Shown here in pieces: positions 1,011 to 57,975 of a DNA stretch of 64,000 nt (position 1 is the first letter of the stretch; each line of letters begins with the position of its first letter). Made by a program: the position numbers and the translations under genes. Where the stretch lies: contig JAIOQW010000347.1 of assembly GCA_021108405.1 (NCBI GenBank), positions 18,486 through 82,485 of the forward strand, read 5' to 3'. The stretch is from Methanosarcinales archaeon. GTDB taxonomy: Archaea > Halobacteriota > Methanosarcinia > Methanosarcinales > Methanocomedenaceae. Below the pieces are notes generated by a model, which had not been told where the DNA came from, did not search any database, and was given only the letters and a program-made list of their open reading frames with translations.

Positions 1011-1180
1011 ATAGTATATCAAGTATAACTTGATATATCGAAAATGTTCACTTCGTTCACATTTTCTAATTCTCCATTCCTCTGGAATATCGGACGAAGA
1101 TTCTACGAATCTTCTAATCTTCGGCTCTTTTAAGAGTCTCAGTCAAGAAAATCCGACCAAAGGGAGGATTTTGTTCTTGA
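1011..1180 (+). repeat. Mosaic hairpin repeat, locus 1: M1-M2-M3-M4-M5-M6 (full copy)
   Basis: TATATCAAGTATAACTTGATATA / GAAAATGTTCACTTCGTTCACATTTTC / CCATTCCTCTGGAATA / GAAGATTCTACGAATCTTC / CGGCTCTTTTAAGAGTC / TCAAGAAAATCCGACCAAAGGGAGGATTTTGTTCTTGA. Lies between the KaiC-like gene end and the RAM-protein start. Confidence 0.9.
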
Positions 1181-1253
1181 CTCCCATATTGGTTTAATTA
1201 GCTTTAAAGGTTAGGATTTCAAACGATAGATGCAATTCATGTTTCTGAATTTT

Positions 1254-2138
1254 TTACGCAGTACCGTTTTTCGCAGGATCATATGAAGACTTAACTAATC
1301 GTTTTGCCAGATTTGATGCACTTCGAAGCTGCAGACCGGATTTAGTAAAAAAGAATTGATGCGGCATTTCATTGATCTCTGTTAACCGCATTTTTTGGAT
1401 CTCAATAAAATACGTTTTATATTGATCTAATTCCTGTCTAAATTTTTTATCAAAGAAAAAAATACCATCACCCATAAAATCAAAATCATCATATTCATTT
1501 ATTTCAATACCATGTTTTTTTTCTGTAATAGCAAAACAAGTTATTTTTTTTTCTTTAATGATCTTTAAGATATTTCTCCATTCTGACGAATGTCTGAATT
1601 TCTCATGTGAAGAAAAAAGATTAAGTGAATCAAAAACAATACGTTTTGGCTTAAAAACCTCAATAATCTCTATAATCTCCTCTAATGACAGCATAGTAAA
1701 TCCGAATATTTCCAGATACCCTTTATCCAGATAATCTCCGACATCCCATCCATATCGTATAGACTGTTTGATCAACTGTTCTACTTTTTCCTCAAAAGAG
1801 AAAAAAATACATTTTTCATTGTCCTTCATACCCTCCAATAAGAACTGCATGGAGAATGTAGTCTTACCAGTTCCAGGGGGACCTGTTACTACTACAACAA
1901 ACCCTTCGGGAATTCCACCTTCTACTAATTCATCGAAACCCGGGATACCAGTTCTTACTCTTTTAATAACTTTGCTGAGGCTTTGAGGATCTATTTTATC
2001 TTTTAAACGGATTTTATCCATACCTAACAATGCACGCTCTAAAACCACATTCTTAGCACCTAACTCCTGCTCATAACGCTCAAGTACTCTCATAGCCTCT
2101 GTACTAAGAGTAGTATGGATAGGGTGTTTAGCACGCAT
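1254..2138 (-). CDS. KaiC/RecA-superfamily ATPase (single KaiC-like domain) with ~60-aa N-terminal extension
   Basis: RVRTGIPGFDELVEGGIPEGFVVVVTGPPGTGKTTFSMQFL (Walker A) and overall KaiC/RadA-like layout. Confidence 0.7.
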   Translation of the reverse strand: MRAKHPIHTTLSTEAMRVLERYEQELGAKNVVLERALLGMDKIRLKDKIDPQSLSKVIKRVRTGIPGFDELVEGGIPEGFVVVVTGPPGTGKTTFSMQFLLEGMKDNEKCIFFSFEEKVEQLIKQSIRYGWDVGDYLDKGYLEIFGFTMLSLEEIIEIIEVFKPKRIVFDSLNLFSSHEKFRHSSEWRNILKIIKEKKITCFAITEKKHGIEINEYDDFDFMGDGIFFFDKKFRQELDQYKTYFIEIQKMRLTEINEMPHQFFFTKSGLQLRSASNLAKRLVKSSYDPAKNGTA

Positions 2139-2179
2139 ATTATTGTATCCTGTTCATACCTGGTATCAGGTACTAATAA

Positions 2180-2602
2180 TCAGTTGTGTTTTTTACTGGT
2201 AATAAATAAAAAGACCAGTGCTATCATTACAGCTATTGGTAAGGCCATTAGTGGAAATTCCGGTACTAATATCGTATTATTCGGGTTTATAGTAATATTG
2301 AACTCTTCACCAGCTTCATTTCTACTCTTACCAAACTCACCGTCTTTTTCTGCAACTATATAAATGGTTCTATTTTCAGGTAATGACTCCAGAGAAATGG
2401 AAAAATCCCCGTTCATATCTGTCCAACTGCTGTATAAACAGTCAGTATAATCATCATTTTCATATATTGATATTGCAGCAAATCGTACAGGTTCTCCATT
2501 GTTGTTGTTAACTGACCCATGTACTTCTAAAGCCACACAAGGCATACTCATAGCCAGTAATAAGATAAGTGCCAGCATAACTCTTATAATAGTATTATTC
2601 AA
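2180..2602 (-). CDS. Small secreted protein with PEF-CTERM-type tail
   Basis: N-terminal signal peptide (MLALILLLAMSMPCVA). C-terminus is VPEFPLMALPIAVMIALVFLFITSKKHN: PEF motif, TM helix, basic tail. The middle resembles a carboxypeptidase-regulatory-like beta sandwich (weak). Confidence 0.5.
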   Translation of the reverse strand: MNNTIIRVMLALILLLAMSMPCVALEVHGSVNNNNGEPVRFAAISIYENDDYTDCLYSSWTDMNGDFSISLESLPENRTIYIVAEKDGEFGKSRNEAGEEFNITINPNNTILVPEFPLMALPIAVMIALVFLFITSKKHN

Positions 2603-2803
2603 TTAATTTTCCTCCTAACCACCCGGAAAGCATATATGTATTAAATAAATATAATCTTGAATATTGTTTAACTGAATTTATTATTGATTTGGAATATTAA
2701 TGGGAATTATTAATTTATTTTACTATTACTACCATTCTTAACTATTTAAATCTTACGAAAAAAATAGAATGTGATGATCATCATTATTACAATTTATTTT
2801 ATA

Positions 2804-2836: not shown

Positions 2837-3826
2837 TTATGGTACAAATAATCCAATCACGCAAAATACGCTTGTTAAAAGAAACATTGCTTTAGTTGCC
2901 TGTTTTTCATCAACTTTCATATAATATGGCAATATCCACTTGAGAGTCAACGGATTTGGTACTTCAAGGGTTCCATCATTCCTTATCTTTCCAAATTTAG
3001 CAGTTGGAAATTTTCTTATTTTCCAGTATACATATAATAAAAAATTTACTGTATGTGGAATAAGCATAATAAATCCACTTACAATAAATCCCTGGACAAC
3101 AATAAGTGCTCCGATAGTAGATCCTACTGTAAGGGATCCTATATTACCCCAGAAGATTTTTGAAGGATACCGTTCAAATATATAAAAACCAAATGTTGCG
3201 CCAGTAATACTGATAATTGAAAATATATTATCAACATCCATGACTATTATACTTTTAATGATCAAGGACATTAGTATTATCACTGAAAGACCGGAAGACA
3301 ATCCATTATATCCAGAATGCATATTTATTAAATTCGCAGCAACCAGAACGAATGTAGGAACAATGAGCTGGATATATATATCTCCTAAGTCTACATATCC
3401 TATTATCGGGAATACTACTGTTGTGTTGGTTACATATTGAATTAAGGGATATGAGCAATAATACATGATAAGAAGCTTGGATGCTCGACCTATATCCAGC
3501 ATGTCATCAAGTATTCCAAATAATGCAAATGATGTAATGACAACAAGTATCACATAATTCATTGATTCGAATTTGAAAAAAAGTGAATTCAAGGATAATG
3601 CAAGCAAAGAAATAAGAATGATTGCAATCCCACCACCGGTAGGTACTTTTACTCCACCTTTTTTATAGACATCCGGAACCACCAAATTTTTTTCAATAAG
3701 TTTCCTGATAAGATAGGGTATAAATAAAATTGATCCGATAAAAGGAAGAAAGAAAACGCTAACTATTTCAATCATTAATAATGGTTGAGATGATATTAAT
3801 TGAATAAATGGATCAAGAACTGACAA
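2837..3826 (-). CDS. MraY/WecA-family (GT4) polyprenyl-phosphate HexNAc-1-phosphate transferase, AglH-like
   Basis: Polytopic membrane protein with VPTGGGIAII and FGILDDMLDIG motifs characteristic of the family. Confidence 0.7.
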   Translation of the reverse strand: MSVLDPFIQLISSQPLLMIEIVSVFFLPFIGSILFIPYLIRKLIEKNLVVPDVYKKGGVKVPTGGGIAIILISLLALSLNSLFFKFESMNYVILVVITSFALFGILDDMLDIGRASKLLIMYYCSYPLIQYVTNTTVVFPIIGYVDLGDIYIQLIVPTFVLVAANLINMHSGYNGLSSGLSVIILMSLIIKSIIVMDVDNIFSIISITGATFGFYIFERYPSKIFWGNIGSLTVGSTIGALIVVQGFIVSGFIMLIPHTVNFLLYVYWKIRKFPTAKFGKIRNDGTLEVPNPLTLKWILPYYMKVDEKQATKAMFLLTSVFCVIGLFVP

Positions 3827-4455: not shown

Positions 4456-4526
4456 CTCAAGAAAATCCGAGCGTTAACGAGTATTTTGTTCTACATCAAG
4501 TTATACATGATATACTATTAAAAAAT
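4456..4526 (+). repeat. Mosaic hairpin repeat, locus 2: M6 followed by M1 with AT-rich flank
   Basis: CTCAAGAAAATCCGAGCGTTAACGAGTATTTTGTTCTA then CATCAAGTTATACATGATATACTATTAAAAAA. Confidence 0.8.
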
Positions 4527-6886: not shown

Positions 6887-7060
6887 AAGAACAAAATCCT
6901 CACTTCATTCGGATTTTCTTGACTGAGGCTCGTAAAAGAGCCGAAGATTAGAAGATTCGCAGAATCTTCGTCTGACATTCCAGAGGAATGGAGGATTAGA
7001 AAATGTGAACGAAGTGAACATTTTCGATATATCAAGTTATACTTGATATACTATAAAAAA
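6887..7060 (-). repeat. Mosaic hairpin repeat, locus 3: full M1-M6 copy, inverted
   Basis: Reverse complement of locus 1, module for module. Ends with ACTTGATATACTATAAAAAA. Confidence 0.9.
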
Positions 7061-7160: not shown

Positions 7161-7191
7161 AAAAAATGAGGACATTATATCCTCATTTTTT
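7161..7191 (-). terminator. 12-bp perfect hairpin plus T-tract overlapping the stop codon of 7183-8634
   Basis: AAAAAATGAGGA-cattata-TCCTCATTTTTT. A T run follows the hairpin on either strand. Confidence 0.4.
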
Positions 7192-8634
7192 TCTTTTATC
7201 TATTTGTCGGACTGCTATTATCAAGCCGAAGATTGCTGCAATTATGCTAAAACCAGGTAATCCGCCTTCATCGGATGTCTTGTCAGGTATCGCATCAGTT
7301 GCTTCACCTGATATCGTGGATTCCGCACCCAGACCTGTTCCGTATTCGTCATCTGATGTTGATGATATTTTCTCGGCTGTAATAGAAAATGGAGAGAAAC
7401 CTGGTGTTTCGCCCTCGAATTTTAAAAAGTCTGCATCATGACCGATCTTTGTTGTCTTTAATGAATCCCAGTTTCCATCACTGTATCTATTTAATGCGAT
7501 CGTAGCTATATTGATATTGTTGGTATCGATCCATGATCTCTCTATTGTAAAGAAAACTTTTGCACCGGCAATATTTTCAGATGATGCCCAGTTGCTGTTT
7601 CCAACATTAATATTAATATTTTTATATATCACACCTGCCGGAGGTTTGTCAACTATTGTGGAGATATCTTTAAGCACTTCCACTTCTGCAGCGATCGATC
7701 CGGCATTTGTTAGACCTGTAAATGTGATGGATTGGACACTATTACCCTCGGATTCGAAATTATAAGTTATTTTGGAATCTTTGGATATATACTGTCTTTT
7801 GGTCTCTGATATGTGGATATTATTATTATTTTCACCGGAAGAAGTGGTACCAACACCACGGTTACTGCTGCTGCTACTACTACTGCTACTACTGCTTACA
7901 CTTGATTCTGATCTGGTGACTGACACATCTTCAGTTACAGTTCCTCCAGGGATAGATGATGTAATTTCTACTGTAAATGTATTAGACTCAACCGGAGAAT
8001 CAGCTTTTACTACCCAATAACCGGAACTACTTGCTCCTCCACTTGCTATGGTACCCAATGAATATGATAAGCTGCCTGTGGAAAGACTCCAACCGGTAGG
8101 AAGGGTTATTGCTGCAGTCACATCAGTGGCATCAGCAGCAGTTATTTCTCCGAGGTTTGTAACAGTATAGTCTAATCTGACAGTACCTCCGGCACTGACC
8201 GAGCTCTTGTCTTTAATCACAGCCACATCAATAACCGGTCTATCTTTAATTGTGAGAGGATTTGATGTTGTCTTAGGTGTTGCCGGATTATCTGTTCCGG
8301 TAGCGGTGATTGTAAAGGGATTGCTGTAGGTACCAGGTGTATTTGCAGTCAATGACCATTCGACCTTCTCAGTTGTATTTGAACTAAAAGTGATTTGTTG
8401 AGCGCTATTTTCGATACTGACACCTACACCGTCACCTGGTATCAATGTGACGGTTACTGTTTTAGATGTGGTTATCCCTTCAGCAGTGATAGATGTCGAA
8501 ACTGAAAATGATTCATCCTTTACTACTGTATTGACATCACCAATAGTATTGATTTGTAAAGATGAAACTGCACTTACTGTTTGGATATTCAATGCTAATA
8601 CTAGAATAATCAATATTAATGATATTAGTCTCAT
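7183..8634 (-). CDS. Cell-surface protein with PGF-pre-PGF domain and PGF-CTERM anchor signal
   Basis: Signal peptide, poly-Ser linker (SSSSSSSSSS). The segment YKNININVGNSNWASS...ERSWIDTNNINIATIALNRYSDGNWDSL...PGFSPFSITA is paralogous to the tail of 33124-36387. C-terminus is LPGFSIIAAIFGLIIAVRQIDKRKK. Confidence 0.75.
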   Translation of the reverse strand: MRLISLILIILVLALNIQTVSAVSSLQINTIGDVNTVVKDESFSVSTSITAEGITTSKTVTVTLIPGDGVGVSIENSAQQITFSSNTTEKVEWSLTANTPGTYSNPFTITATGTDNPATPKTTSNPLTIKDRPVIDVAVIKDKSSVSAGGTVRLDYTVTNLGEITAADATDVTAAITLPTGWSLSTGSLSYSLGTIASGGASSSGYWVVKADSPVESNTFTVEITSSIPGGTVTEDVSVTRSESSVSSSSSSSSSSSNRGVGTTSSGENNNNIHISETKRQYISKDSKITYNFESEGNSVQSITFTGLTNAGSIAAEVEVLKDISTIVDKPPAGVIYKNININVGNSNWASSENIAGAKVFFTIERSWIDTNNINIATIALNRYSDGNWDSLKTTKIGHDADFLKFEGETPGFSPFSITAEKISSTSDDEYGTGLGAESTISGEATDAIPDKTSDEGGLPGFSIIAAIFGLIIAVRQIDKRKK

Positions 8635-11600
8635 TTATGTACACCTCCCTCTTCGTGATACATCATACTCATGTTCTCCATCATGAAATGCCTTTCTACA
8701 ATTTCTGACTTTTGAGTTGATGAATCTGTGAGATTTATCAGTACAACAAAGTCACCAAAGCTAAATTCACCTACTTTATTAATAAGTTCTGAATTATTAA
8801 TTATCAATGTACCAATTCCATTTGTCATCGTACCAGCGCTGTCAAGGTTTACGATTGTCGGTTCCATCATATCCATGTCAAAACCTTTGTCAAAACCTTC
8901 GTCAAAGTCATCGTCAAAGCCATCGTCAAAACCTTCGTCAAAACCTTCGTCAAAACCTTCGTCGAAACCTTCGTCGAAATCATCCATTGAATCAGTCCAC
9001 ATTACCATCAATTTATCAACTGAAATAGTTCCGTTTACCTGTTCATTAGTGAATGTCCTGGCAGTTAAGAATATTGATACGTTCTCGGATACATTGAATG
9101 GTTCCCATTCTTTATTTGCAATAGTTATCAATGTTGAAACATTATTGACAGTTTCTTTCATAACCGGGAATGATATAGGCCATCCCCAGAGAGTGCCGAT
9201 TTCAACCCATCTTTCATCAAATTTCTCTCCAAACTTATTTAACGTACCACCTTCTTCACCGTACATGTCAATAGGTTCATTGTCACCCCATCTATCTGTA
9301 AGATCATTGTCATCATCATATCTTCCTGAATTTACAGAGAACTTACCATCTGCACAATTATCCTCCAGTACCATATAATAGGGTTGGGTAACATTCACAT
9401 TCCCATCATCATTTAAGTCTGTATTAACATCGGCTTCTGTAAAGTTCCCTACATAATATGAATCTCCGTCAGGAGCCCAATCCGAAAACGGATATATTCC
9501 ATGTGTTAGAGAAGCATTTGCAAAGATTATCTTACCACCCCATGGAGAAGCGACTGCTACATATTCATTATCAAGTTCAGGTATCTGTACACCGATCCTA
9601 TAACTTTCATTGAAAGTTGAATTCGCAACCAGGACCCTGTCAAATGTGTTGCACCACTGGTCATACTTTTCCAGTTCGGATTTTTCAGCGTCATTGTACC
9701 CATATACTGTATAGCCCATATAAGAAACCACAGAAACACGTCCTGATTCAAGTTCTCCGTTGTCCGGATCATCATCCAGCAGGACTTCCAGATCACTGAT
9801 CTTATACAGGGCTTTGGCGCTATACAGCGTCAGTGTAACATTTTGCGAGGTTACATTAGAAACATTCACGTGGAACTCACCTGGTCCCCAGCCTATCCAT
9901 TCATTAAGACTATAATTTCTGGAACCAGATTGATACCAGTCATCACCTAAAAGATAATCGATTTCCATATTAGCTGTACTACCATGGGTAGCACTGTTTA
10001 AAGTGATATTCCAGAATCCCCAGCAAAGCTCAGTATCTCCTGAGTTAATAGTCACATTATTCCCTTCCGGATAATAATCCGTAAAGTTATAACTGACAAC
10101 CTGATCACCCATCGTGAGATTAATACTGTCATTTGTCACAAAATTACTGATCCCGGTTGAGTCATTATGGTAACTGGAGTTGGTTGTATTAAAGTACCAG
10201 CTGTCCTGCATATCAAATGGCCATCCGATTCTCAGGACATCATCTTTTCCGGTTCCATGTAGCATTACTGCACCCATAGCCTCAGTTTCTATACCGTAAT
10301 TTACACTTAGACCGTTTCCGTCCGATACTTTTGTAACATTGACATCCCCTACTGTCCCGATTGACGCTTCCACTACAAAAGACCGAAGCTCCAGTCCGGG
10401 AAGGTTCCACATCTCATAAGGAGATATGTTTGTATAATATGGGCCAGGAAGCTCAATATTATAATGAAGCAAGTACTGTCCGTTTGGTATGTTTTTTTCT
10501 GATGTGTTGATAGTAAGCATGGCCAGTCCGTATTCGTTAGTCTTGGATTCTTGGTCGATATTTATATCATTAAAGCCCGGTGTAAACCATGTTAATTTAT
10601 CAATTGTTACATTTGCATTGGCTATACCTCCTGTCTTAGCATCAGTCGCACCTGGCTTTTGGATAAGGAATGGAATGGTAACGTTCTTTCCGTTCTGGAA
10701 CGTTCCAAGCCATTCACCGCTCCAGCCCATTTTATAGCTGGTGAACTTTAGTTCATATTTATTGTTCTGGTACATCATATTTATCAGATAAATAGGTGCT
10801 CCGCCAAATTCTACCGGATCACCTGCGCTGGCATCAATAGCATTGGAAAAGTTTGAAGTGTTTGCAACAAGTACTGTATCATAAATTCCTGCGGTTTCAT
10901 TATCTGCAAGGATAAGATAATATATATTCTCTCTTGAATCCCAGTTCGCCCAGTAATCACCATTTCCATCCAGATCAATATTTAACCAGTCACAATCCTG
11001 CATCCAGTCAGATATAATGAATTCCCCTGATTTACTGAGCGATGTATCGATGTTGTATCCCGAACTCAGACAGTCTTTACCTGTGAACTCAATACTACCA
11101 TCCGAGCCTATGGATGTGACATTCCACTGTCTGATAGTAACATTAGTGTTATTTTTCTCATTGAATGTTTCCCCTATATCAAGATTGGTAGTATTTTTAG
11201 TATCTGAAAAATTACAATTGTTATAGTTTATATATATGTTGCGGGGTGAAGTAAGGTTCACCAAGATCCAGAATGGTGTCCGATCTTCCTCCATTTCCCA
11301 TTCAGTCAGTAATTCTATTTCCCATTTTGCAACCTTTCCAACATATGAATTAGTTGCAACTGAATAGTTTAGGCCCGGATATCTACCATCTATATCCTTT
11401 TCCCATTCTTCTACTTTGGATGTCGTATCGTTAACAAATATGGAGGTTTTTGTAGTTTGCATCCTGTCTAAATCAACACCTATCCAGTAGAACTCAGGAA
11501 GTCCAACACTTGCAATTTCTACCTGGAACCAGAAATGAGTAAATACTTCATCTCCATCTTCGTCTACAACATTGATCGTCATGAAATAACTTCCCTCATC

Positions 11601-14597: not shown

Positions 14598-14843
14598 AAT
14601 ACTGCCCCCAAATTATAAAATTCCTATTTTATTAATATTTGATTTCTTTGTTTAAAGTCAAGACATCCCCAATTTATTTTATATTACTTACTATAAATAT
14701 CTTCTCATCTTTTAAACTGGAAAAAAAATTTAGTAAACCCATCACGCAGGAAAAACATCATACATAGTATTACGATAATAGAAAAGTTTATTACCATCAT
14801 CGATCATAAGGATGTTCCGCGGATATAATTGGTTTGTCATATT

Positions 14844-14922
14844 AATATCAAGTATACCTTGATATATCGAAAATGTTCACTCTGTTCACATTTTCTAATC
14901 TTCAGCTTCTTCGAAGCTTCAG
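14844..14922 (+). repeat. Mosaic hairpin repeat, locus 4: M1-M2-M5b
   Basis: AATATCAAGTATACCTTGATATA / GAAAATGTTCACTCTGTTCACATTTTC / TAATCTTCAGCTTCTTCGAAGCTTCAG. Confidence 0.85.
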
Positions 14923-15036: not shown

Positions 15037-15085
15037 CTATATTTTTTAAAAAAAAATCTGTATCAACTTCTAAAAATAGAGGAAT

Positions 15086-15134
15086 GACACTTTAGAGGAA
15101 AAACTCTGTGTTCATTGTGGCTATCATTTTTACC
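15086..15134 (-). repeat. Partial copy of module M8 (homologous to 29164-29222)
   Basis: Reverse complement GGTAAAAATGATAGCCACAATGAACAC...CCTCTAAAGTGTC versus GGCAAAAATGATAGCCACAGAGAACAC...CGTCTAAAGTATC at 29164. Confidence 0.7.
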
Positions 15135-15140: not shown

Positions 15141-15195
15141 TTTGAAGTGGATATGTAAACGCGAACGAAGTGAGCGTTTACATATCCACTTCAAA
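15141..15195. repeat. 22-bp perfect hairpin carrying the M2 loop (M7/M2-long)
   Basis: TTTGAAGTGGATATGTAAACGC-gaacgaagtga-GCGTTTACATATCCACTTCAAA, 64 nt upstream of the purL ATG. Confidence 0.9.
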
Positions 15196-23941: not shown

Positions 23942-24060
23942 GCGAAGATTAGAAGATTAGAAGATTCGCAGAATCTTCGTCTGACATTCCAGAGGAATGG
24001 AGGATTAGAAAATGTGAACGGAATGAACATTTTCGGTATATCAATTTATACTTGATATAC
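23942..24060 (-). repeat. Mosaic hairpin repeat, locus 5: M1-M2-M3-M4 plus M5 stub, inverted; abuts the aroC stop
   Basis: GAAGATTAGAAGATTAGAAGATTCGCAGAATCTTCG / ACATTCCAGAGGAATGGAGG / GAAAATGTGAACGGAATGAACATTTTC / TATATCAATTTATACTTGATATAC. Confidence 0.85.
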
Positions 24061-25139
24061 TAAGATAAATGATCTGTCCTGATCAAATGGTCTGCAAGTA
24101 CCAGTGCCATCATTGCCTCGGCAACGGGAACGATCCTCGGTGGAATTGTAGGATCATGCCGACCCTGAATAACGATCTCAGTATCAGACAGACTCAGCAG
24201 GTCTACTGTCTTCTGGGGTCTCGCAATAGATGGGGTTGGTTTAACAGCGATCCTGCAGATGATATTCTCTCCACTGGATATGCCACCCAGAATACCTCCG
24301 GCATTATTGGAAGTACATACTACTTTTCCATTTCTAATCTCAAATGGATCGTTCATCTGGCTACCTGTTAAACCTGCACATGCAAAACCTGCTCCGATCT
24401 CCACACCCTTAACTGCTCCGATCCCCATTAGAGCCCTGGCAATATCAGCATCCAGTTTATCAAATACAGGTTCACCGAGTCCGGGAGGCATTCCCAGAGC
24501 AATGATCTCAACAATCCCGCCAATGCTGTCGTTATTTGCTCTTGCCTGCCTGGTCTTACTGAGCATAACTTCTGCGGCTTTTAGGTCTGCACACCGCACA
24601 GGATTTGATTCCACATTGGTACGGATCTCATCAATAGTAACAGGTGAGGCTTTGACATTGGCAAGTTCCACTACATGTGCCAGTATTTCAATACCATGCA
24701 CAGCTAATACTTTTTTGGCTACTGCACCACCTGCCACACGTGCTGCAGTCTCCCTGGCAGATGCACGTCCTCCCCCTTTGTAATCACGAATACCATATTT
24801 CATGAAGTACGTATAATCCGCATGACCAGGACGGGGAGTATCTTTGATACTTTCGTATTTGCTGGAATCCGCATCCTTATTATAGATCACTAATGAGATG
24901 GGCGTACCAGTGGTCTTACCCTGGAAAATGCCGGATAGGATATTTACTTTGTCATCTTCTTTACGTGGTGTGGATACGTCACTCTGGCCCGGACGCCTCC
25001 TATCAAGCTCATGCTGGATATCAGCCTCTGTAAGCTCAAGTCCGGGAGGGCAGCCATCTATGACAACACCTGTTGCAGGACCATGACTTTCACCCCACGT
25101 TGTTATTGCGAATGCTTTTCCGAATGTGTTTCCTGCCAT
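24060..25139 (-). CDS. aroC: Chorismate synthase
   Basis: 359 aa, N-terminus [18 protein letters not shown] and full-length AroC pattern. Confidence 0.95.
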
Positions 25140-27820: not shown

Positions 27821-27937
27821 TAGTGTATCAAGTATAACTTGATATATCGAAGATGCTCACTTCGTTCACATTTTCTAATCCTCCATTCCTCTGGAATGTC
27901 GGTCAAGAAAATCCGACCGAAGGGAGGATTTTGTTAT
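27821..27937 (+). repeat. Mosaic hairpin repeat, locus 7: M1-M2-M3-M6
   Basis: TAGTGTATCAAGTATAACTTGATATA / GAAGATGCTCACTTCGTTCACATTTTC / CCATTCCTCTGGAATG / TCAAGAAAATCCGACCGAAGGGAGGATTTTGTTAT. Lies 83 nt upstream of tRNA-Leu. Confidence 0.9.
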
Positions 27938-29050: not shown

Positions 29051-29160
29051 AGATATATCACGTATAACTTAATATACAATAAAATGGTATCCACTTCAAA
29101 TCAGAGAACAAAATCCTCCCTCCGGTCGGATTTTCTTGAGTATATCAATACTTGATATAC
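29051..29160 (-). repeat. Mosaic hairpin repeat, locus 8: degenerate M1, then M7-M6-M1 (inverted)
   Basis: ATATATCACGTATAACTTAATATA ... TATCCACTTCAAATCAGAG / AACAAAATCCTCCCTCCGGTCGGATTTTCTTGAG / TATATCAATACTTGATATAC. Confidence 0.85.
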
Positions 29161-29163
29161 TAG

Positions 29164-31012: not shown

Positions 31013-31100
31013 TTCAACCTTCTTCAGAAATGTTCACATCCTATATAAAAGTATGAATTCTATTCTCCATTATCTTACCTTATCAATGCCTTTTTTCTAG

Positions 31101-31172
31101 TATATCAAGTATAACTTGATATACTCAAGAAAATCCGACCGAAGGGAGGATTTTGTTCTTGTATATCAAGTA
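31101..31172 (+). repeat. Mosaic hairpin repeat, locus 9: M1-M6-(half M1)
   Basis: TATATCAAGTATAACTTGATATA C TCAAGAAAATCCGACCGAAGGGAGGATTTTGTTCTTG TATATCAAGTA. Ends 4 nt from the moeA stop. Confidence 0.9.
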
Positions 31173-37253: not shown

Positions 37254-37414
37254 TTTTTATAGTATATCAGGCATAACTTGAGTTGAAAATACTTCGTATT
37301 TTCTAATCCTCCATTCCTCTGGAATATCAGACGAAGATTCTTCGAATCTTCTAATCTTCGGCTCTTTTAAGAGCCTCAGTCAAGAAAATCCGGGCGGAGG
37401 GAGGATTTTATTCC
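37254..37414 (+). repeat. Mosaic hairpin repeat, locus 10: M1(degenerate)-M2short-M3-M4-M5-M6
   Basis: GAAAATACTTCGTATTTTC / CCATTCCTCTGGAATA / GAAGATTCTTCGAATCTTC / CGGCTCTTTTAAGAGCCTCAG / TCAAGAAAATCCGGGCGGAGGGAGGATTTTATTCC. Confidence 0.9.
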
Positions 37415-40046: not shown

Positions 40047-40211
40047 AAAGAACAAAATCCTTCCTTCGGTCGGATTTTCTTAACTGAAGCTTCGGAGAAG
40101 CTGAAGATTAGAAGATTCGTAGAATCTTCGTCCGACATTCCAGAGGAATGGAGGATTAGAAAATGCGAACGGAGTGAGCATTTTCAATATATCAAGTTAT
40201 ACTTGATATAC
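40047..40211 (-). repeat. Mosaic hairpin repeat, locus 11: M1-M2-M3-M4-M5b-M6, inverted; starts 13 nt after the kinase stop
   Basis: AAGAACAAAATCCTTCCTTCGGTCGGATTTTCTTAAC / TGAAGCTTCGGAGAAGCTGAAG / GAAGATTCGTAGAATCTTCG / ACATTCCAGAGGAATGGAGG / GAAAATGCGAACGGAGTGAGCATTTTC / ATATATCAAGTTATACTTGATATA. Confidence 0.9.
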
Positions 40212-40240
40212 TAAAACAAATCAAATGAGGGGGAAATCAT

Positions 40241-40701: not shown

Positions 40702-40871
40702 TTTTAGTATATCAAGTATAACTTGATATATTGAAAATGCTCACTCCGTTCGCATTTTCTAATCCTCCATTCCTCTGGAATGTCGGACGAAGATTCTACG
40801 AATCTTCTAATCCTCCATTCCTCTGGAATGTCGGTCAAGAAAATCCGAGCGCTAGCGAGGATTTTATTCTT
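40702..40871 (+). repeat. Mosaic hairpin repeat, locus 12: M1-M2-M3-M4-M3-M6
   Basis: M3 occurs twice (40761-40786 and 40809-40834 approx.). M6 has the GCTA loop variant (CCGAGCGCTAGCGAGG). Confidence 0.9.
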
Positions 40872-42243: not shown

Positions 42244-42416
42244 TTTTATAATATATCAAGTATAACTTGATATATCAAAAACGCTCACTCCGTTCACATT
42301 TTTTGATCCTCCATTCCTCTGGAATGTCGGACGAAGATTCTACGAATTTCCTAATCCACCATTCCTCCGGAATGTCGGTCAAGAAAATCCGAGCGTTAGC
42401 GAGGATTTTGTTCTTG
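42244..42416 (+). repeat. Mosaic hairpin repeat, locus 13: M1-M2-M3-M4-M3-M6
   Basis: Same module order as locus 12. M6 has the GTTA loop variant. Confidence 0.9.
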
Positions 42417-43734: not shown

Positions 43735-43955
43735 TAGAATATCAAGTATAACTTGATATATCGAAAAAATGGAGGCGCTCACTTCGTTCACATTTTTTGA
43801 TCCTCCATTCCTCCGGAATGTCGGACGAAGATTCTACAAATCTTCTAATCCTCCATTCCTCCGGAATGTCGGACGAAGATTCTACAAATCTTCTAATCCT
43901 CCATTCCTCCGGAATGTCGGTCAAGAAAATCCGAGCGTTAGCGAGGATTTTGTTC
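43735..43955 (+). repeat. Mosaic hairpin repeat, locus 14: M1-M2-(M3-M4)x2-M3-M6
   Basis: Contains a perfect 48-bp tandem duplication, 43801-43848 = 43849-43896. Confidence 0.95.
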
Positions 43956-43991
43956 AAATACCAACATATTAGAATAAAGGAGTTATTGATT

Positions 43992-45222: not shown

Positions 45223-45247
45223 AGTGTGATTATGAATATTTTTTTGT

Positions 45248-45311
45248 AGTATATAATCTGTAAGATAATATACTTAAGAAAATCCGACCGAAGGGAGGAT
45301 TTTGTTCTTGA
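45248..45311 (+). repeat. Mosaic hairpin repeat, locus 15: degenerate M1 + M6
   Basis: TAGTATATAATCTGTAAGATAATATAC TTAAGAAAATCCGACCGAAGGGAGGATTTTGTTCTTGA. Confidence 0.85.
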
Positions 45312-45405: not shown

Positions 45406-45759
45406 ATGTCAAAAAAATCGGGTGCAATGCGAGGAGTTAATCCCAAAGCAATGAACAAAATGATGAAGCAAATGGGGATAAACAGTGATGAGATTGACAA
45501 TGTAGAGCAGGTTATAATCAGGACTCAGGATACTGACATTATTTTCGATGATGCCAATGTGACCAAAGTAGAAGCTCCTGGTATGCTAACCTATCAGATA
45601 ATAGGTAATCCGCGGGAAGTTCCAAGAGAGATCCAAATATCGCAAGAGGATATAACCCTGGTTGCCGAGCAAACCGGAAAGTCCCAGGATGAAGCCAGAG
45701 CAGCTCTAAAGGAGACGGGTGGAGATTTGGCAGAAGCTATTTTAAAACTGGGAAGTTAA
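45406..45759 (+). CDS. nac: Nascent polypeptide-associated complex protein (NAC domain + UBA)
   Basis: 117 aa. MNKMMKQMGI..., VIIRT..., and the C-terminal UBA-like DEARAALKETGGDLAEAILKL. Confidence 0.9.
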   Translation: MSKKSGAMRGVNPKAMNKMMKQMGINSDEIDNVEQVIIRTQDTDIIFDDANVTKVEAPGMLTYQIIGNPREVPREIQISQEDITLVAEQTGKSQDEARAALKETGGDLAEAILKLGS

Positions 45760-45760
45760 T

Positions 45761-45865
45761 AAAAATGCTCACTTCGTTCGCATTTGCTTGAGATATTTTT
45801 TTATAGTATATCAAGTATAACTTGAGGTACTCAAGAAAATCCGACTGAAGGGAGGATTTTGTTCT
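45761..45865 (+). repeat. Mosaic hairpin repeat, locus 16: M2variant-M1-M6, starts 2 nt after the nac stop
   Basis: AAAAATGCTCACTTCGTTCGCATTTGCTTGAGATATTTTTTTATAG / TATATCAAGTATAACTTGAGGTAC / TCAAGAAAATCCGACTGAAGGGAGGATTTTGTTCT. Confidence 0.9.
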
Positions 45866-45945
45866 AAAATATATACAGGAATAAAATTCCCGTTAACCAG
45901 GTGGGAGAGGCATTAAACTTAAGCAAAATACTATTTATGAATATA

Positions 45946-52864: not shown

Positions 52865-55312
52865 TCATCCTGACAGCCATATTGCTATAATCTCCTGGAG
52901 ATCTGTAGAAGACATAATATGTCCTCTTACTGGTATATCCTCTAACCAGTGATGAATAGCTTTTTGAAGTTCCACTGTAGTGACTGCACCCCCCCCTTCT
53001 GAATCTTCACCAATCCATTCATTTTTCCAATTATCATTAATTTGATTTCCACCAACTTTTATCACCCAGAAATCCTTACCACCAGCACTGTACGATTCCG
53101 TAGATCCTGCAATTATATAACCACCATCAGTAGTCTGCTGGATTGATTGTGCAAAATCATTATCAGTCCCTCCAAAGGTTTCATTCCATTGCTCGTTTCC
53201 ATTCGAATCTGTTTTCACAAGCCAGAAATAATAGGAATATTCACTACTATACGATTGTGTGGATCCTGCAATTATATAACCACCATCAATGGTTTGCTGG
53301 ACTGAGTTTGCATAATCCCTACTATTTCCTCCAAAGGTCTCGTTCCATTGCTCGTTCCCATTCGAATCGGTTTTAATAAGCCAGATATCTTCATAAAAAT
53401 TATCATCCTCCGTAATTCCAGCAATGATATAACCACTGTCAGATGTCTGCTGGACTGAGTATGCCCAATCCCCATAAGATTTTGTAAAGGTCTTATCCCA
53501 TTGCTTGTTTCCATTCGAATCTGTTTTCACAAGCCAGGAATCAGCCATACCAGCATCGTAATGAATATATCCTGCAATGATATAGCCACCATCAGTGGTC
53601 TGCTGAACAGAAGATGCTTTATCTTCATAAATTCCTCCAAATGTTTTGTTCCATTGCTCGTTTCCATTCAAATCTGTTTTCACAAGCCAAAAATCACCTT
53701 CATTAACATCGTACGAGGACGTATATCCTGCAATTATATAACCACCATCAATAGTCTGCTGAACAGAAGATGCCTCTTCCCAGGCAGTTCCTCCAAATGT
53801 CTCGTTCCATTGTTCGTTTCCATTCGAATCCGTTTTCACAAGCCAGGAATCACTATAACCAGCACCGTACGAACACGTTGATCCTGCAAATATATAACCA
53901 CCTTCTATAGTCTGCTGGACCGAATTTGCCCAATCTCGGTTAGTTCCTCCAAATGTTTTGTTCCATTGTTCATTTCCATTCGAATCCGTTTTCACAAGCC
54001 AAGAATCACCACAACCAGCACCGTACGAGTACGTATATCCTACAATTATATAACCACCATCAGTGGTCTGCTGAACAGAGGATGCATCTTCCCAGGCAGT
54101 TCCCCCAAATGTCTTGTTCCATTGCTCGTTTCCGTTTAAATCGGTTTTCACAACCCAAAAATTCCCATAACCAACACCATACGAATACGTACGTCCTGCA
54201 ATAATATAACCGTCATCAGTAGTCTGCTGGACTGTGTTTGCAGAATCACTATTAATTCCTCCGAATGTTTTGTTCCATTGCTCGTTTCCATTCGAATCTG
54301 TTTTCACTAAACAAAAATCAGACTTATCAGCACCATACGGGTATGTATATCCTGCTATGATATAACCACCATCAGTAGTCTGCTGAACTGAGTATGCAAA
54401 ATCACCATTAGATCCACCAAATGTTTTGTTCCATTGCTCGTTTCCGTTTGAATCAATTTTCTTCAATGAAAAATCATAGCCACCAGTGCTGTACCAGTCC
54501 GTCGATCCTGCAATTATATAACCACCATCAGTGGTCTGCTGGACGGAGCATGCCTCCTCATCATAATATTCTGCAAATGTTTTGTTCCATTGCTCATTTC
54601 CATTCGAATCTGTTTTCACAATCCAGAAATCTGACCAGTAATCACTACTATACGAATACGTTTCTCCTGTAATTATATAACCACCATCAGAGGTCTGCTG
54701 GATAGAGTATGCACAATCCCGTTCCGTTCCTCCAATTGTCTTGCTCCATTGCTCATTTCCGTTCAGATCTATTTTCATCAATAGAAGATCACGATCACTA
54801 TACGACCATCTTTCTCCTGCAAGAATATAACCACCGTCAGTGGTTTGTTGAACTGAATATATATTCAACCAGTTAGATCCTACATAAGTCTTATTCCATT
54901 GCTCGTTTCCGTTTGAATCGGTCTTCACAAGCCAGAAATCACCAGAATCAACTATGTGCGTGTACGTATTTGCAATTATATAACCACCATCAATGGTCTG
55001 CTGGACAAAAGATGCGTAATTATCCTCAGTTCCATCAAAGGTCTTGCTCCATTGCTCGTTTCCATTGGAATCGGTTTTCACTAATAAATAATCATAATCA
55101 CCATTCAACCACCTATATCCTGCAAGAATATAACCACCATCAATAGTCTGTTGAATAGATGATATTTCACCCCAGGAATTTCCTCCAAAAGTCTTGTTCC
55201 ATTCTTCTTCTGGTGCCGCTCCATTAGCACATCCAATGTTTATGGATATTAGCATTAAGAATAGAAGCGCGAGCATTAATATTAATTTGAATGTTCTTTT
55301 TACACTATTCAT
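52865..55312 (-). CDS. Secreted protein made of ~14 tandem ~52-aa beta-propeller-like repeats
   Basis: Signal peptide, then 13 copies of W/FLVKTDSNGNEQWNKTFGG...SVQQT.DGGYIIAG plus edge repeats. The unique ~70-aa C-terminal tail has no anchor motif. Confidence 0.75.
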   Translation of the reverse strand: MNSVKRTFKLILMLALLFLMLISINIGCANGAAPEEEWNKTFGGNSWGEISSIQQTIDGGYILAGYRWLNGDYDYLLVKTDSNGNEQWSKTFDGTEDNYASFVQQTIDGGYIIANTYTHIVDSGDFWLVKTDSNGNEQWNKTYVGSNWLNIYSVQQTTDGGYILAGERWSYSDRDLLLMKIDLNGNEQWSKTIGGTERDCAYSIQQTSDGGYIITGETYSYSSDYWSDFWIVKTDSNGNEQWNKTFAEYYDEEACSVQQTTDGGYIIAGSTDWYSTGGYDFSLKKIDSNGNEQWNKTFGGSNGDFAYSVQQTTDGGYIIAGYTYPYGADKSDFCLVKTDSNGNEQWNKTFGGINSDSANTVQQTTDDGYIIAGRTYSYGVGYGNFWVVKTDLNGNEQWNKTFGGTAWEDASSVQQTTDGGYIIVGYTYSYGAGCGDSWLVKTDSNGNEQWNKTFGGTNRDWANSVQQTIEGGYIFAGSTCSYGAGYSDSWLVKTDSNGNEQWNETFGGTAWEEASSVQQTIDGGYIIAGYTSSYDVNEGDFWLVKTDLNGNEQWNKTFGGIYEDKASSVQQTTDGGYIIAGYIHYDAGMADSWLVKTDSNGNKQWDKTFTKSYGDWAYSVQQTSDSGYIIAGITEDDNFYEDIWLIKTDSNGNEQWNETFGGNSRDYANSVQQTIDGGYIIAGSTQSYSSEYSYYFWLVKTDSNGNEQWNETFGGTDNDFAQSIQQTTDGGYIIAGSTESYSAGGKDFWVIKVGGNQINDNWKNEWIGEDSEGGGAVTTVELQKAIHHWLEDIPVRGHIMSSTDLQEIIAIWLSG
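53035..55210 (-). repeat. Coding tandem array (~156-165 bp period) inside 52865-55312
   Basis: Recurrent DNA blocks such as CCAAATGTTTTGTTCCATTGCTCGTTTCCATTCGAATC.GTTTTCAC. Confidence 0.9.
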
Positions 55313-55709: not shown

Positions 55710-55847
55710 AAGAACAAAATCCTCCCTTTGGTCGGATTTTTTTGACTGAAGCTCCGAAGGAGTTGAAGGTTAGAAGATTCGTAGAATCTTCGTCCGACAT
55801 TCCAGAGGAATGGAGGATTAGTAAATGCGAACGAAGTGAGCATTTAC
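55710..55847 (-). repeat. Mosaic hairpin repeat, locus 17: M2-M3-M4-M5b-M6 (inverted, no M1); abuts the stop of 55850-57724
   Basis: AAGAACAAAATCCTCCCTTTGGTCGGATTTTTTTGAC / TGAAGCTCCGAAGGAGTTGAAG / GAAGATTCGTAGAATCTTCG / ACATTCCAGAGGAATGGAGG / GTAAATGCGAACGAAGTGAGCATTTAC. Confidence 0.9.
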
Positions 55848-55849
55848 TA

Positions 55850-57724
55850 CTACATCCTGCGTATAAAGCTAACCACAAAGATCCCTATTAATCCCAATAA
55901 CATAGAAAATCCGGGAATAACAGGATCCTGCTTATTAGCAGAAGATGTTTGTGTCGGCGCCGGAGATATTGTCTTTAAAGGTATAGGCGTATCTGTAGTT
56001 GTCGTATTCATTTCACTTATATTAGATGATATATTTAAATTTTGAGTATTAGTAAGCTGCATTGTGGTCTTTGCAATCACTCTGGCATAATTATATTCTA
56101 CGATCTTCTGGCTGGGTGATTCAAGCGAATCTGCAAACTCATATGCACTTGCAGCCAGTACAGGTTCTATACCTGCATTCCTTACATCTTCAATAGCTAT
56201 TCTTGCCGATTCGGCACTGCGGTTGATCTTGGTATCCACATCAGCATAACCCAGCAGACTAATAGCTGTACTGGCCTGTTCTGCTGCCAGTAATGAATCA
56301 AAGATAGCTCCGCTGTAATATCCTCTTTCATATTCGATCTTGGCTCTATTAAGCGACTCTTCAGCTTCCTGTAATAGGTTCAGGAGTCCGTGCCAGCTTT
56401 CCATCTCATGAATAACAGTCTCTGTATAGATAACAACAGATGAGGCAGTACCCACATACCATCCGGCTCTGTCTTTCAATATGGTTTCTGGTGTGATAGT
56501 ATTAGAATTAGCCAGTGATAGCCACCATCCAACTGTCTGGGCTCTCATAGATGCCTGAGTAAGAATCTCAATGAACTGTTTATCGGATTCTGCGGATCTT
56601 GCATCTTCTAAGAACTGTTCTGCCATTACTACTCTGATCTCGGCAGCACCCACACTGTCCACATCCACAACCCCACCATCTTTGAATGCATCCACTTCCT
56701 GGCGACTCTCATTGATCTCCAGGGTCACCTGTTCTAATAGATTATTAAGATACTCATTTTTATCCTTAGCATTCTGGTATTCCTCGTACCATAATATGAA
56801 TTTCAGGTTCTTCAGGATCAGCAGGCCTGTATTAGTGGCTGCATAATATTGCTGATCATCATATTGTTCATATCCGTATCTTAATAGTTCTTCCTGGGAT
56901 TGTAAAGTATCAGAAAACTGCGTAGTCTCATCAAGTGCTTTGTGATATAATAGATTTGCTTCACTCAGTACATCAGCAGACAGGGGACGTAGAGTATTCA
57001 GGTATTCAGCCGACCGTATGCCCTTTGGTGGTATGGAAATATTGATCCGATTGCCTGTGAATAATTCAACTGCCTCCTGGATAGTTGCTACTTCCTCAAC
57101 ATTGATGTTTTGTTCTTTTCCTCTTTCTATCACATCTATCAGGACAGGCTCATCTTCGATCATAACAAACGGACCTCCCTGTACTGTTTTTCTATTAGGG
57201 ATCATTACTTCGGTCTGGCCTTCGGGTACAATGAATAATGTTGCACCGTGCTGAGCTGCTGCATCGAGTTTAGAAGGAATTCCCCCTACCGGTCCTATAC
57301 TGCCGTCAGGGTTTATCATACCAGTCATCACCACATCCTGTGATAACTTCCAGTTCATTATATCAGCAATAGTAGCAACAGTAAGTGCAGCACCGGCTGA
57401 GGGCCCACCAATAATAGGGGAAGTGACTTCAATAATATAATAAAAATCATATTTGGTAGGGTCGATATCTGTTATATCAGAAGCTACAAGAGTTGCCATT
57501 CTGGCTGAACCTTGCAGGTCCATCTGGGTATAGGGTTGAGTATCTACAAATACGTGGCCGCTACCAGGGGTTACAATTACTGTAGCATTCAATAATACTC
57601 CAGATTCACCATCGGGTGTAGAATATGCAGCCACTATTGGAACTGTTATTCCTTCTTCCATATTAAGTGCACACGCAGGTGTAACAAATAAGAAAATCAG
57701 GATAATAGCTAAAATGAACCTCAT
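55850..57724 (-). CDS. Extracellular S16 (Lon C-terminal-like) serine protease domain + long helical domain + PGF-CTERM
   Basis: Signal peptide (MRFILAIILIFLFVTPACA from ATG 57724), GGPSAGAALTVA (Lon-type Ser motif), tail VIPGFSMLLGLIGIFVVSFIRRM. Confidence 0.7.
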   Translation of the reverse strand: MRFILAIILIFLFVTPACALNMEEGITVPIVAAYSTPDGESGVLLNATVIVTPGSGHVFVDTQPYTQMDLQGSARMATLVASDITDIDPTKYDFYYIIEVTSPIIGGPSAGAALTVATIADIMNWKLSQDVVMTGMINPDGSIGPVGGIPSKLDAAAQHGATLFIVPEGQTEVMIPNRKTVQGGPFVMIEDEPVLIDVIERGKEQNINVEEVATIQEAVELFTGNRINISIPPKGIRSAEYLNTLRPLSADVLSEANLLYHKALDETTQFSDTLQSQEELLRYGYEQYDDQQYYAATNTGLLILKNLKFILWYEEYQNAKDKNEYLNNLLEQVTLEINESRQEVDAFKDGGVVDVDSVGAAEIRVVMAEQFLEDARSAESDKQFIEILTQASMRAQTVGWWLSLANSNTITPETILKDRAGWYVGTASSVVIYTETVIHEMESWHGLLNLLQEAEESLNRAKIEYERGYYSGAIFDSLLAAEQASTAISLLGYADVDTKINRSAESARIAIEDVRNAGIEPVLAASAYEFADSLESPSQKIVEYNYARVIAKTTMQLTNTQNLNISSNISEMNTTTTDTPIPLKTISPAPTQTSSANKQDPVIPGFSMLLGLIGIFVVSFIRRM

Positions 57725-57765
57725 ACCAAGCAATATATGGTATGATAGTAATAAATGTTATGGAA

Positions 57766-57975
57766 GAGAACAAAATCATCGCTAACCCTTGGATTTTCTT
57801 GACCGACATTCCAAAGGAATGGAGGATTAGAAGATTCATAGAATCTTCGCCTGAGGCTCTGGAAGAGCCGAAGATAAAAATGTGAACGGAGTGAGCATTT
57901 TCGATACTGAAGCTTCGAAGAAGCTGAAGAATAGAAAATACGAAGTGTTTTCGATTCAAGTATAACTTGATATAC
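57766..57975 (-). repeat. Mosaic hairpin repeat, locus 18: permuted copy; + strand order M6'-M3'-M4'-M5'-M2'-M5b'-M2short'-M1
   Basis: All modules keep the inverted polarity, but M3'-M4'-M5' run in the opposite order to loci 3 and 11. Contains both M5 types and both M2 types. Confidence 0.9.

Follow-up and report, generated by a model that had tools for sequence, protein, structure and literature searches.

The DNA analyzed here (64,000 nucleotides of contig JAIOQW010000347.1, assembly GCA_021108405.1, from a Methanosarcinales archaeon of the Methanocomedenaceae; hereafter the window) carries ordinary housekeeping genes, namely purL, purB, glnA, nrpR, aroC, aroA, sucCD and genes for a DEAD-box helicase and NAC, and the gaps between its genes hold short repeated DNA elements built of hairpins. 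An earlier interpretation made without database searches (the sequence-only reading) had resolved these repeats into hairpin modules M1 to M6, with rarer M7 and M8. The module sequences were present where it had placed them, and a direct-repeat finder sorted them into interlocking families. M1 at no more than 3 mismatches gave 19 strand matches at 13 sites (0.00 expected; 100 shuffles) and the M6 core, AAAATCCG-N10-11-GGATTTT, gave 13 matches (0.00 expected), which excludes a chance origin of the repeats. A module-by-module parse yielded approximately 20 module-bearing loci covering approximately 2.3 kb, or 3.6% of the window, and every locus lay outside genes; this confirms the earlier observation, whose total of about 2.5 kb was slightly too high. 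The loci are given below by position, strand and composition.

1012..1177, plus strand: full M1-M2-M3-M4-M5-M6, 166 nt, between a KaiC-like gene and a 76-aa gene
4459..4517, minus strand: M1, then an inverted M6b hairpin
6888..7053, minus strand: full M1-M2-M3-M4-M5-M6
14840..14922, plus strand: M1-M2-M5b, 3'-truncated, without M6
15141..15195, no strand assigned: perfect 22-bp hairpin with M2-type loop TCACTTCGTTC; adjoined by 15117-15150, the empty version of the site that is filled at 29162
23960..24062, minus strand: M1-M2-M3-M4 with degraded 3' end, abutting the chorismate synthase stop codon
26673..26735, minus strand: divergent M1'-M6' (covariance model, 52.8 bits); its plus strand reads as an M2-like hairpin and a T-run; uninterrupted paralogue of 45757-45880
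27821..27937, plus strand: M1-M2-M3-M6, upstream of tRNA-Leu
29054..29076, plus strand: solitary M1-like hairpin
29105..29162, minus strand: M1 (short loop deletion)-M6, filled site GTGGCTATCATTTTTGCCC[TAG...GTTC]TCTGATTTGAAGTGGATA
31098..31159, plus strand: minimal M1-M6, 62 nt (covariance model, 95 bits)
37260..37414, plus strand: M1 (degenerate)-M2short-M3-M4-M5-M6
40049..40213, minus strand: M1-M2-M3-M4-M5b-M6
40705..40870, plus strand: M1-M2-M3-M4-M3-M6b, within the conserved DEAD-box helicase leader
42249..42414, plus strand: M1-M2-M3-M4-M3-M6b
43735..43956, plus strand: M1-M2 (degenerate)-(M3-M4)x2-M3-M6b
45247..45308, plus strand: minimal, compensated M1 variant (TATATAATCT gta AGATAATATA) and M6 (covariance model, 85.6 bits)
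45757..45880, no strand assigned: nested pair, a standard M1-M6 (45804-45865, plus) inside a divergent M1'-M6' (minus; 45757-45803 and 45866-45880)
55711..55847, minus strand: M2-M3-M4-M5b-M6 without M1, abutting the stop codon of a Lon-domain gene
57767..57974, minus strand: composite M1 (loop inverted)-M2short-M5b-M2-M5-M4-M3-M6b

The grammar and the ends of the elements were derived from approximately 65 copies in the window and in contigs of 'ANME-2 cluster archaeon HR1' (ANME, anaerobic methanotrophic archaea), set in one orientation. A T-run is followed by (T)AG and M1, then by an optional stretch TC-M2-TAAT-X-(A/G-M4-TAAT-X)n, and finally by M6, and the element ends in GGATTTTGTTC(T). 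The ends are fixed and unlike, being (T)AG plus M1 on the 5' side and M6 followed by GTTC(T) on the 3' side; the interior is optional and ordered. M1 is a hairpin of 10-12 bp (a 23-26-nt palindrome), and (T)AG stands in front of it in 94-96% of copies. Both terminal hairpins lie on the same strand, M1 at 2-3 nt from the 5' junction and M6 at 4-5 nt from the 3' junction, and the smallest complete copy is M1-M6 with 62 nt. X denotes M3, M5 or M5b, which had been listed as two modules (M5b as a variant of M5) and are all one hairpin type (CYTC, 6 bp, 3-4-nt loop, 6 bp, TCRG). Longer copies contain M2 plus one to six X hairpins alternating with M4 (n of X-M4 = 0 to 5), and the 48-nt X-M4 unit reaches five to six tandem copies in two loci, L011 and L034. 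M2, which reads AAAATGC-TC-AC-TYC-GT-TC-RCATTTT on the plus strand, is an inverted M6-like hairpin (M6 on the minus strand, AAAATCC-TC-CC-TTC-GG-TC-GGATTTT); these two form the sole inverted pair of related hairpins, and M1 and M6 are not alike. Conservation ends sharply past GTTC(T): the position after GTTC is T in 82% and the following one in 58% of copies before the background is reached. No terminal inverted repeats were found, as the 5' end (T)AGTATATCAAGT (TAGTATATCAAGT) is unrelated to the reverse complement of the 3' end, AGAACAAAATCC. Head-to-tail tandem elements, which would be expected if the 3' end served as a target, were not found either.

Complete copies occurred as previously described at 1012-1177 (+), 6888-7053 (-) and 37260-37414 (+), and the same holds for the shorter ones at 31098 (M1-M6) and 27821 (M1-M2-M3-M6). 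The supposed M6 alone at 45274 is an element of M1 variant and M6 (45247-45308), and the outer flank 'CTATAAAAA' (TTTTTATAG on the element strand), listed with M1, is mostly target DNA. The sequence-only reading had also treated the modules as freely combinable. The apparent mosaic is instead an ordered element subject to internal deletion and amplification, and its modules are not mixed at will. In L022-L025, fusions of the type TATATCGAAAATCC...GGATTTTGTT look like deletions between the GAAAAT common to M2 and M6.

Comparison of filled and empty sites showed that whole elements are discrete insertions with sharp junctions. The orthologous site upstream of the helicase gene was empty in four aligned relatives (L036, L037, L039 and L119), which read TTAATTGTTTT/TAATAAC (the slash marks the junction), and the window reads TTAATTGTTTT[AGTATATC...GGATTTTATTCT]TAATAAC, an insertion of 165 nt that may alternatively be written [AG...ATTCT]. 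Three further relatives (L116, L117 and L118) carried only a 62-nt M1-M6b at exactly those junctions, and their aligned leader flanks were almost identical to those of the empty L036. This cross-strain comparison at 40-46 kb covers the helicase-leader element; beyond the helicase, gene order is unconserved in the relatives at 83-90% identity. Two paralogous pairs within the window showed the same picture. At 26700 the sequence reads TTTTTTTAT/AAAATATATACAG, and at 45804 it reads TTTTTTTAT[AG...GTTCT]AAAATATATACAG; because the shared background is itself a divergent M1'-M6' on the other strand according to the covariance model, 45804 represents a nested insertion. In the second pair, GTGGCTATCATTTTTACCC/TCTGATTTGAAGTGGATA at 15117 is interrupted by TAG...GTTC at 29162. 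The comparison of orthologous intergenic regions proposed in the sequence-only reading thus revealed an empty site in four relatives, and none of the three resolved junctions showed a target-site duplication, the ambiguity of the boundary being a single T only. A TA duplication of the IS630/mariner type was considered; it fits a paralogous pair and fails at the helicase site. A retroposon with a poly(A) tail, represented by an A-run end on the opposite strand, was rejected as the T-run is already present in empty sites.

In the three empty/filled cases, the element lay always immediately 3' of a T-rich octamer with the consensus TTTTTWT. As empty sites carry this octamer, it belongs to the target DNA. 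Among 50 distinct 5' flanks, T occupied position -8 in 60%, -7 in 92%, -6 in 90%, -5 in 64%, -4 in 92% and -3 in 78%; position -2 was A in 52%, T in 28% and G in 16%, and position -1 was T in 96%, directly followed by the AG of the element. At least five T in the last 8 nt were found in 46 of the 50 flanks, compared with 6.9% of random octamers from the whole window, coding sequence included. The last 8 nt of the element, TTTGTTCT, match the target pattern, suggesting that the same kind of motif may stand 5' of both presumed cut points; this resemblance was read from the sequence logo and noticed after the fact.

Every module folds, and whole elements were more stable than shuffled sequences on either strand, with z scores of -4.1 to -5.2 under RNA parameters and -4.6 to -5.8 under DNA parameters. 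In an alignment of M1 and M6 from eleven distinct minimal elements, two of them from L119, 96.5% of the cells were paired and 5 pairs were changed on both sides, a value reached in 0 of 500 shuffles; slid controls paired at 29-46%. Compensated variants of the M1 stem included TATATAATCT/AGATTATATA, TATATGATCT/AGATCATGTA and TACATAAAGT/ACTTTGTGTA, and L119, whose helicase is 83% identical, also carried M1 stems with compensated changes. In the X hairpins, 6 of 8 pairs were changed on both sides among 18 distinct sequences, and nearly all retained a 2x2 internal loop TC/TC (C8 and C26 invariant, T7 in 17/18, T25 in 15/18) that corresponds to tandem GA/GA on the complementary strand. On the element strand, M6 has GA/GA followed by CC-GAA-GG, or by GC-GYTA-GC in M6b. 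These substitution patterns indicate that the hairpin structure is under selection. In M1, the apical 5 bp covary against a conserved base (TAGTATAT...ATATAC) and a conserved ATA loop, which fits recognition by a protein. Mismatches comprised 26 G.T and 41 C.A, 20 of the latter in a single M2 column, and this asymmetry was not significant; the minimum free energies of both strands were equal under RNA and DNA parameters.

The elements also change in place. The window's helicase site is occupied by 165 nt; L116-118 have 62 nt there, and L036 has an empty site. A near-identical contig (L035, ENA ERZ26872896 NODE_71; 84 kb, 99.6-100% identical to the window over three aligned blocks) has one 48-nt unit fewer in both 40705-40870 and 43735-43956, and these two units together with about a dozen mismatches account for all differences. 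The composite at 57767-57974 shares only the M1 hairpin with its HR1 orthologue (L007), in which a plain M1-M6 lies on the opposite side of that hairpin. Subsets of the element arise by internal deletion or amplification of a longer element at one site. In L038 (helicase 98% identical), the stop codon of the helicase gene is immediately followed by an element remnant; the window lacks an element at this point and has a full one 90 nt further on. A degenerate M1-like sequence follows the helicase stop and a T-run in several lineages, among them the window (42152-42200, TTTTTTTGTGGTATATAAAGT...) and L116 (11221-11260, TTTTTTACAGTATATCAGTATTCAGTA), and these sequences may be decayed relics of older insertions into a recurrent target. 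Upstream of the inositol-1-phosphate synthase gene, the M1-M6 of the window (gene 29885-31012, element 31098-31159) is oriented opposite to that of L119, indicating independent insertions. In L119, a perfect (CAACTAT)n 7-nt tandem repeat (3551-3658) is located upstream of this gene, just downstream of the divergent M1-M6.

In the window and the relatives, 65 of 66 loci lay outside long ORFs (open reading frames), in both orientations, bearing out the earlier description of dense, intergenic, ORF-less hairpin repeats in an archaeon. With the element taken as plus, 18 contexts were divergent, 13 co-directional tandem, 12 anti-directional tandem and 8 convergent, and the window itself holds 10 plus and 7 minus copies. 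The density is approximately 0.3 copies per kb, and the contig carries five further copies within 9.7 kb upstream of the window. The six copies noted previously between 40.0 and 45.9 kb are real; the gaps carrying them are not strictly consecutive, as the gap at 42804-42855 has no copy. Conservation of the helicase leader that carries 40705-40870 exceeds that of the helicase coding sequence. Approximately 170 nt before the helicase start (40600-40945 minus 40705-40870; compared with L036, L116 and L119) are almost invariant, while the helicase proteins are 83-93% identical; this suggests a long 5' leader under conservation, possibly of the cold-shock deaD type, with the element in its middle. 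A 72-aa Cys-rich ORF (40241-40459, +) has a good ribosome-binding site, lacks Pfam matches and is bracketed by the inverted full elements 40049-40213 and 40705-40870, whose M1 ends point inward, so that the arrangement resembles a composite unit.

When one genome per species was searched for exact occurrences of the M1 core, 34 stretches were obtained, of which 29 belonged to HR1, one to ANME-2 metagenome-assembled genome (MAG) MAG_011 and one to an uncultured Methanosarcinales MAG; the other three were single matches in unrelated bacterial records (MAGs of Omnitrophota and Bacilli, and a Psychroserpens assembly) that lacked any other module. The HR1 contig L007 is orthologous to 56338-64000 of the window at approximately 95% identity. 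The window and 83 loci, together 1.11 Mb, were scanned with a covariance model of M1-M6, and all 54 matches fell in the window, its own contig (L120), L116, L119 and L038, all of them from ANME-2 relatives; no match occurred in approximately 0.95 Mb of other archaeal and bacterial loci. The family was likewise absent from the viral contigs, plasmids and phages searched. The family was found only in ANME-2 relatives, and its copies are not confined to the window. In the Rfam search suggested by the sequence-only reading, only tRNA-Leu (28020-28104) exceeded the gathering threshold in the window, and none of the six elements at 40-46 kb was matched at E<=1, the only hit there being snoR35 at 45163-45226, below threshold and outside the elements.

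We consider the best explanation of the whole, with a probability of roughly 0.75, to be that these are small mobile DNA elements, non-coding and non-autonomous, of a family specific to the ANME-2 lineage; that the elements are non-autonomous and mobile is, taken by itself, held slightly more firmly. The whole element inserts 3' of a T-rich octamer without duplication, and its interior then grows or shrinks, likely by slipped-strand mispairing or by recombination between similar hairpins and repeated TAAT linkers. It is probably excised and pasted as single-stranded DNA by an enzyme acting in trans, which would read both terminal hairpins and cut 3' of the T-rich motif at both junctions. By analogy, these features fit the single-strand 'peel and paste' transposition of Y1 enzymes of the IS200/IS605 (IS, insertion sequence) and repetitive extragenic palindrome (REP)-associated kinds better than other known mechanisms. 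The most plausible candidate would be a Y1 HUH transposase of the IS200/IS605 or REP-associated tyrosine transposase (RAYT) kind. We propose this enzyme only tentatively, given the degenerate target, the position of M1 at 2-3 nt from the junction and the fact that REP-type TnpA classes have been seen in Bacteria alone (PMC6006769). Effects on host genes, through structured leaders or through hairpins with U-rich tracts, would probably be by-products.

Several observations weigh against this explanation. As the sequence-only reading had stated, the gene tables and scans of the window revealed no transposase, nor did the 9.7 kb upstream. Among 140 ORFs around HR1 copies, no transposase or Y1 family appeared in the 25 families listed of 181, which include all 16 families matched by at least two ORFs, most single matches not being displayed. 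No autonomous copy was found, and in the HR1 loci every M1 without a nearby M6 was explained by truncation, an N-gap or a contig end. M1 at 2-3 nt from the junction leaves no room for a guide sequence of the IS608 type, M1 and M6 are dissimilar, and the target is a degenerate T-rich octamer rather than a strict 4-5-nt motif of the IS200/IS605 type. Mismatch counts and fold energies do not single out a folding strand, and the orientation counts in the window show no clear replication bias. In addition, the pattern of presence and absence at the helicase site might be due to precise loss, to insertion more than once or to strains recombining with each other, and the 48-nt unit differences between assemblies could be real polymorphism or a collapse of short-read assembly.

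A search for an IS with M1/M6 ends covered the window, approximately 270 kb of HR1 loci and collections of plasmids, phages and viruses, and found none. Between the inverted elements (40049-40870), the 72-aa ORF encodes a small Cys-rich protein rather than a transposase, and L018 is a truncated copy between tandem small genes rather than an autonomous one. These genes of L018 (HR1 MZXQ01000130.1, 1-1161) are paralogous and encode approximately 105-110 aa; each has a conserved leader of approximately 100 nt (GATACACGgAGATTTGC...AAGTGTATCAGAGCACCGAGGTGGGGTGCTAAGAA...GGAGGTG) and is followed by a terminator-like hairpin and a T-run, and the truncated element is inserted directly 3' of the T-run. 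CTTGATA in M1 recalls the nick motif of the pC194/phiX174 type, and GTTC/CTTG at the 3' end recalls the target tetranucleotides of IS91; we take both to be coincidental. A rolling-circle nick site was rejected, since CTTGATA is missing from the compensated M1 variants and GTTC is internal to the element.

The mobile elements could belong to an archaeal counterpart of the partnership between RAYTs and REPINs (REP doublets forming hairpins), or to an entirely new hairpin-reading mobilization system, although we regard this as doubtful. A vertically persisting single-copy enzyme, or an unrecognized one, would then read M1 and M6 as single-stranded DNA and cut 3' of a TTTNTTNT-type motif, both at the target and at the element's own end. 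If this were true, hundreds of structured modules amounting to several percent of the genome would be maintained, and module amplification would provide tunable leader and terminator structures.

Among explanations that do not start from mobility, the one that survives best, although we judge it improbable, is that the elements are maintained by the host as REP/BIME-like (BIME, bacterial interspersed mosaic element) structural or regulatory sequences, serving bidirectional termination, stabilization of mRNA 3' ends, insulation or binding of nucleoid proteins, with spread being secondary. The strictly intergenic location, the compensatory changes that keep hairpins across lineages, the M6 hairpin followed by T-rich tracts on both strands and the conserved 2x2 internal loops (GA/GA on one strand, TC/TC on the other) would agree with such a role, and several copies lie just past stop codons (23960-24062, 55711-55847 and 45757). 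However, both orientations are equally used and divergent, convergent and tandem gaps are all occupied; this absence of an orientation preference argues against a primary terminator, promoter or leader role. Moreover, orthologous sites are empty in close relatives without any replacement seen, one copy sits in a strongly conserved 5' leader, a place in which a terminator would do harm, and copies diverge about as fast as their flanks. The structural constraint is explained equally well by the needs of mobilization.

Considerably less probable is that the elements are dispersed genes for small structured RNAs, in which the flank and the start of M1 would form an archaeal promoter and the T-rich tail of M6 a terminator. 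The flank and element start often resemble a TATA box (TTTTTATAGTATAT), the 3' end GGATTTTGTTCTT is oligo-T-like, the predicted folds are far more stable than shuffles, and tandem G.A pairs with a GAA loop, as in M6, are a common RNA motif. However, the T-run is part of the target rather than of the element, many flanks (TTTTGTAG, TTCTAG, TTTTTTAG) are poor TATA boxes, and Rfam gave no match, for the six elements at 40-46 kb even at E<=1. Module number and order vary freely, unlike in a functional RNA, and in the internal hairpins GA/GA loops occupy the strand opposite to that of M6. Classical MITEs (miniature transposable elements with inverted repeats), that is, internally deleted DDE-type IS mobilized by a resident IS, are largely refuted: the elements are small, AT-rich, highly structured, intergenic and multicopy, and MITEs are known from several archaea (PMC10969869), but neither terminal inverted repeats nor, at the three resolved junctions, target-site duplications are present.

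Other features of the window were recorded alongside the elements. A motif of approximately 90 nt, ACTTTAGAsGAAA..CTCTGTG..GTGGCTATCATTTTTrCCCTCTGATTTGAAGTGGATA, is shared by 15085-15200 and 29240-29090 (minus), upstream of purL (15259+) and of a 73-aa ORF (28935-28714, possibly purS), respectively. It runs into the perfect 22-bp hairpin at 15141-15195 and may be a purine-gene leader or regulatory RNA; Rfam gave only generic miRNA-precursor hairpin matches. An 815-aa ORF (52865-55312, -) contains at least 13 tandem repeats of approximately 156 nt (52 aa) with 63-81% identity and a faint Pfam hint of Mucin_bdg; it is probably a repetitive surface protein. The 1988-aa ORF at 8631-14597 (-) has no Pfam match, and its 12-nt repeats GTCAAAACCTTC at 8865-8996 encode, on the coding strand, an acidic tetrapeptide tract of the (D/E)-(G/D)-F-D type near the C-terminus; the neighboring gene 7183-8634 has a weak DUF11 match. 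The 140-aa ORF 293-715 (+) of the program-made list is probably spurious, the source contig (L120) having topoisomerase VI subunit B called on the opposite strand.

ANME-2 archaea, the methane-oxidizing group to which the source of the window belongs, have a key part in the oxidation of methane in the sea; they are uncultured, and metagenomes are the source of their genomes. Contigs of HR1 and of a Logan assembly end inside a repeat; a repeat approximately every 3 kb, together with contigs ending in one, explains the fragmentation of ANME-2 short-read assemblies. Copy presence or absence and the number of 48-nt units may serve as strain markers, and the elements place strong hairpins in the leaders and 3' regions of housekeeping genes. 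The family offers a clean natural case that combines the lack of inverted ends and of duplication with a T-rich target and covarying terminal hairpins, in a domain without reported REP-type systems or their enzymes; identifying the enzyme would extend the biology of single-strand transposition in archaea.

In agreement with the sequence-only reading, which knew of no archaeal description, we found none in the literature on ANME repeats. The archaeal MITEs listed in a 2024 review (PMC10969869) are solely those of Sulfolobus, Halobacterium, Haloquadratum, Desulfurococcus and 'several other' genomes. We therefore place the family, for which no description was found, among small non-autonomous interspersed repeats as previously undescribed. 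With classical MITEs (Correia, RUP, Sulfolobus SM), it shares being small, non-coding, structured, intergenic, multicopy and lineage-restricted, but both defining features of MITEs, terminal inverted repeats and target-site duplications, fail; therefore, these are not classical MITEs. [quoted passage not shown] The preference of the sequence-only reading for a BIME/REP mosaic over MITEs and CRISPR holds in its negative part, whereas the combinatorial mosaic gives way to fixed unlike ends and discrete insertions.

Dense short extragenic hairpins are common to these elements and to REPs, BIMEs and REPINs, and a short tag stands directly 5' of the hairpin, (T)AG here and GTAG in many REPs (PMC3733652). 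The inverted hairpins within one unit (M2 versus M6) recall REPINs, and persistence with compensated stems in related lineages recalls REP systems. However, a REP consists of one hairpin of 20-40 nt and a BIME of REPs in alternating orientation, whereas the ANME-2 units have two unlike terminal hairpins, a fixed order and sharp insertions of whole elements; the RAYT classes of TnpA were found only in Bacteria (PMC6006769). By these comparisons, the elements resemble BOX or REPINs more than BIMEs.

Non-autonomous derivatives of IS200/IS605 are exemplified by the palindrome-associated elements of haloarchaea. IS200/IS605 is the commonest archaeal IS family, occurring in more than 65% of Halobacteriota genomes (PMC13343696), and is characterized by subterminal hairpins, no duplication and insertion 3' of a short motif (PMC6006769). 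The ANME-2 elements likewise lack terminal inverted repeats and target duplications, have hairpins at both ends and show precise presence/absence alleles. They insert 3' of a T-rich motif, for which the preference is strong, although this motif is degenerate and exceeds the usual 4-5 nt in length. They differ in the degenerate octamer target, the left hairpin at 2-3 nt from the junction, the modular and tandemly amplifiable interior and the lack of a cognate tnpA/tnpB in the loci examined.

Pneumococcal BOX elements have the form boxA-(boxB)n-boxC with a strain-variable number of boxB (Croucher et al. 2011, PMC3049150). Like them, the ANME-2 elements possess two fixed unlike end modules and a variable count of tandem internal modules, the number at one locus differs between strains, and the copies are intergenic, strongly folded and without an ORF. 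The ends of BOX have inverted-repeat similarity to ISSpn2 and its host is bacterial (Streptococcus), whereas the ANME-2 elements have no terminal inverted repeats and combine several alternating hairpin types with a defined T-rich target and no duplication; the resemblance is architectural, not by descent. Taken together, the closest counterpart in architecture is BOX, and the closest in mechanism would be the derivatives of IS200/IS605 and the REPINs.

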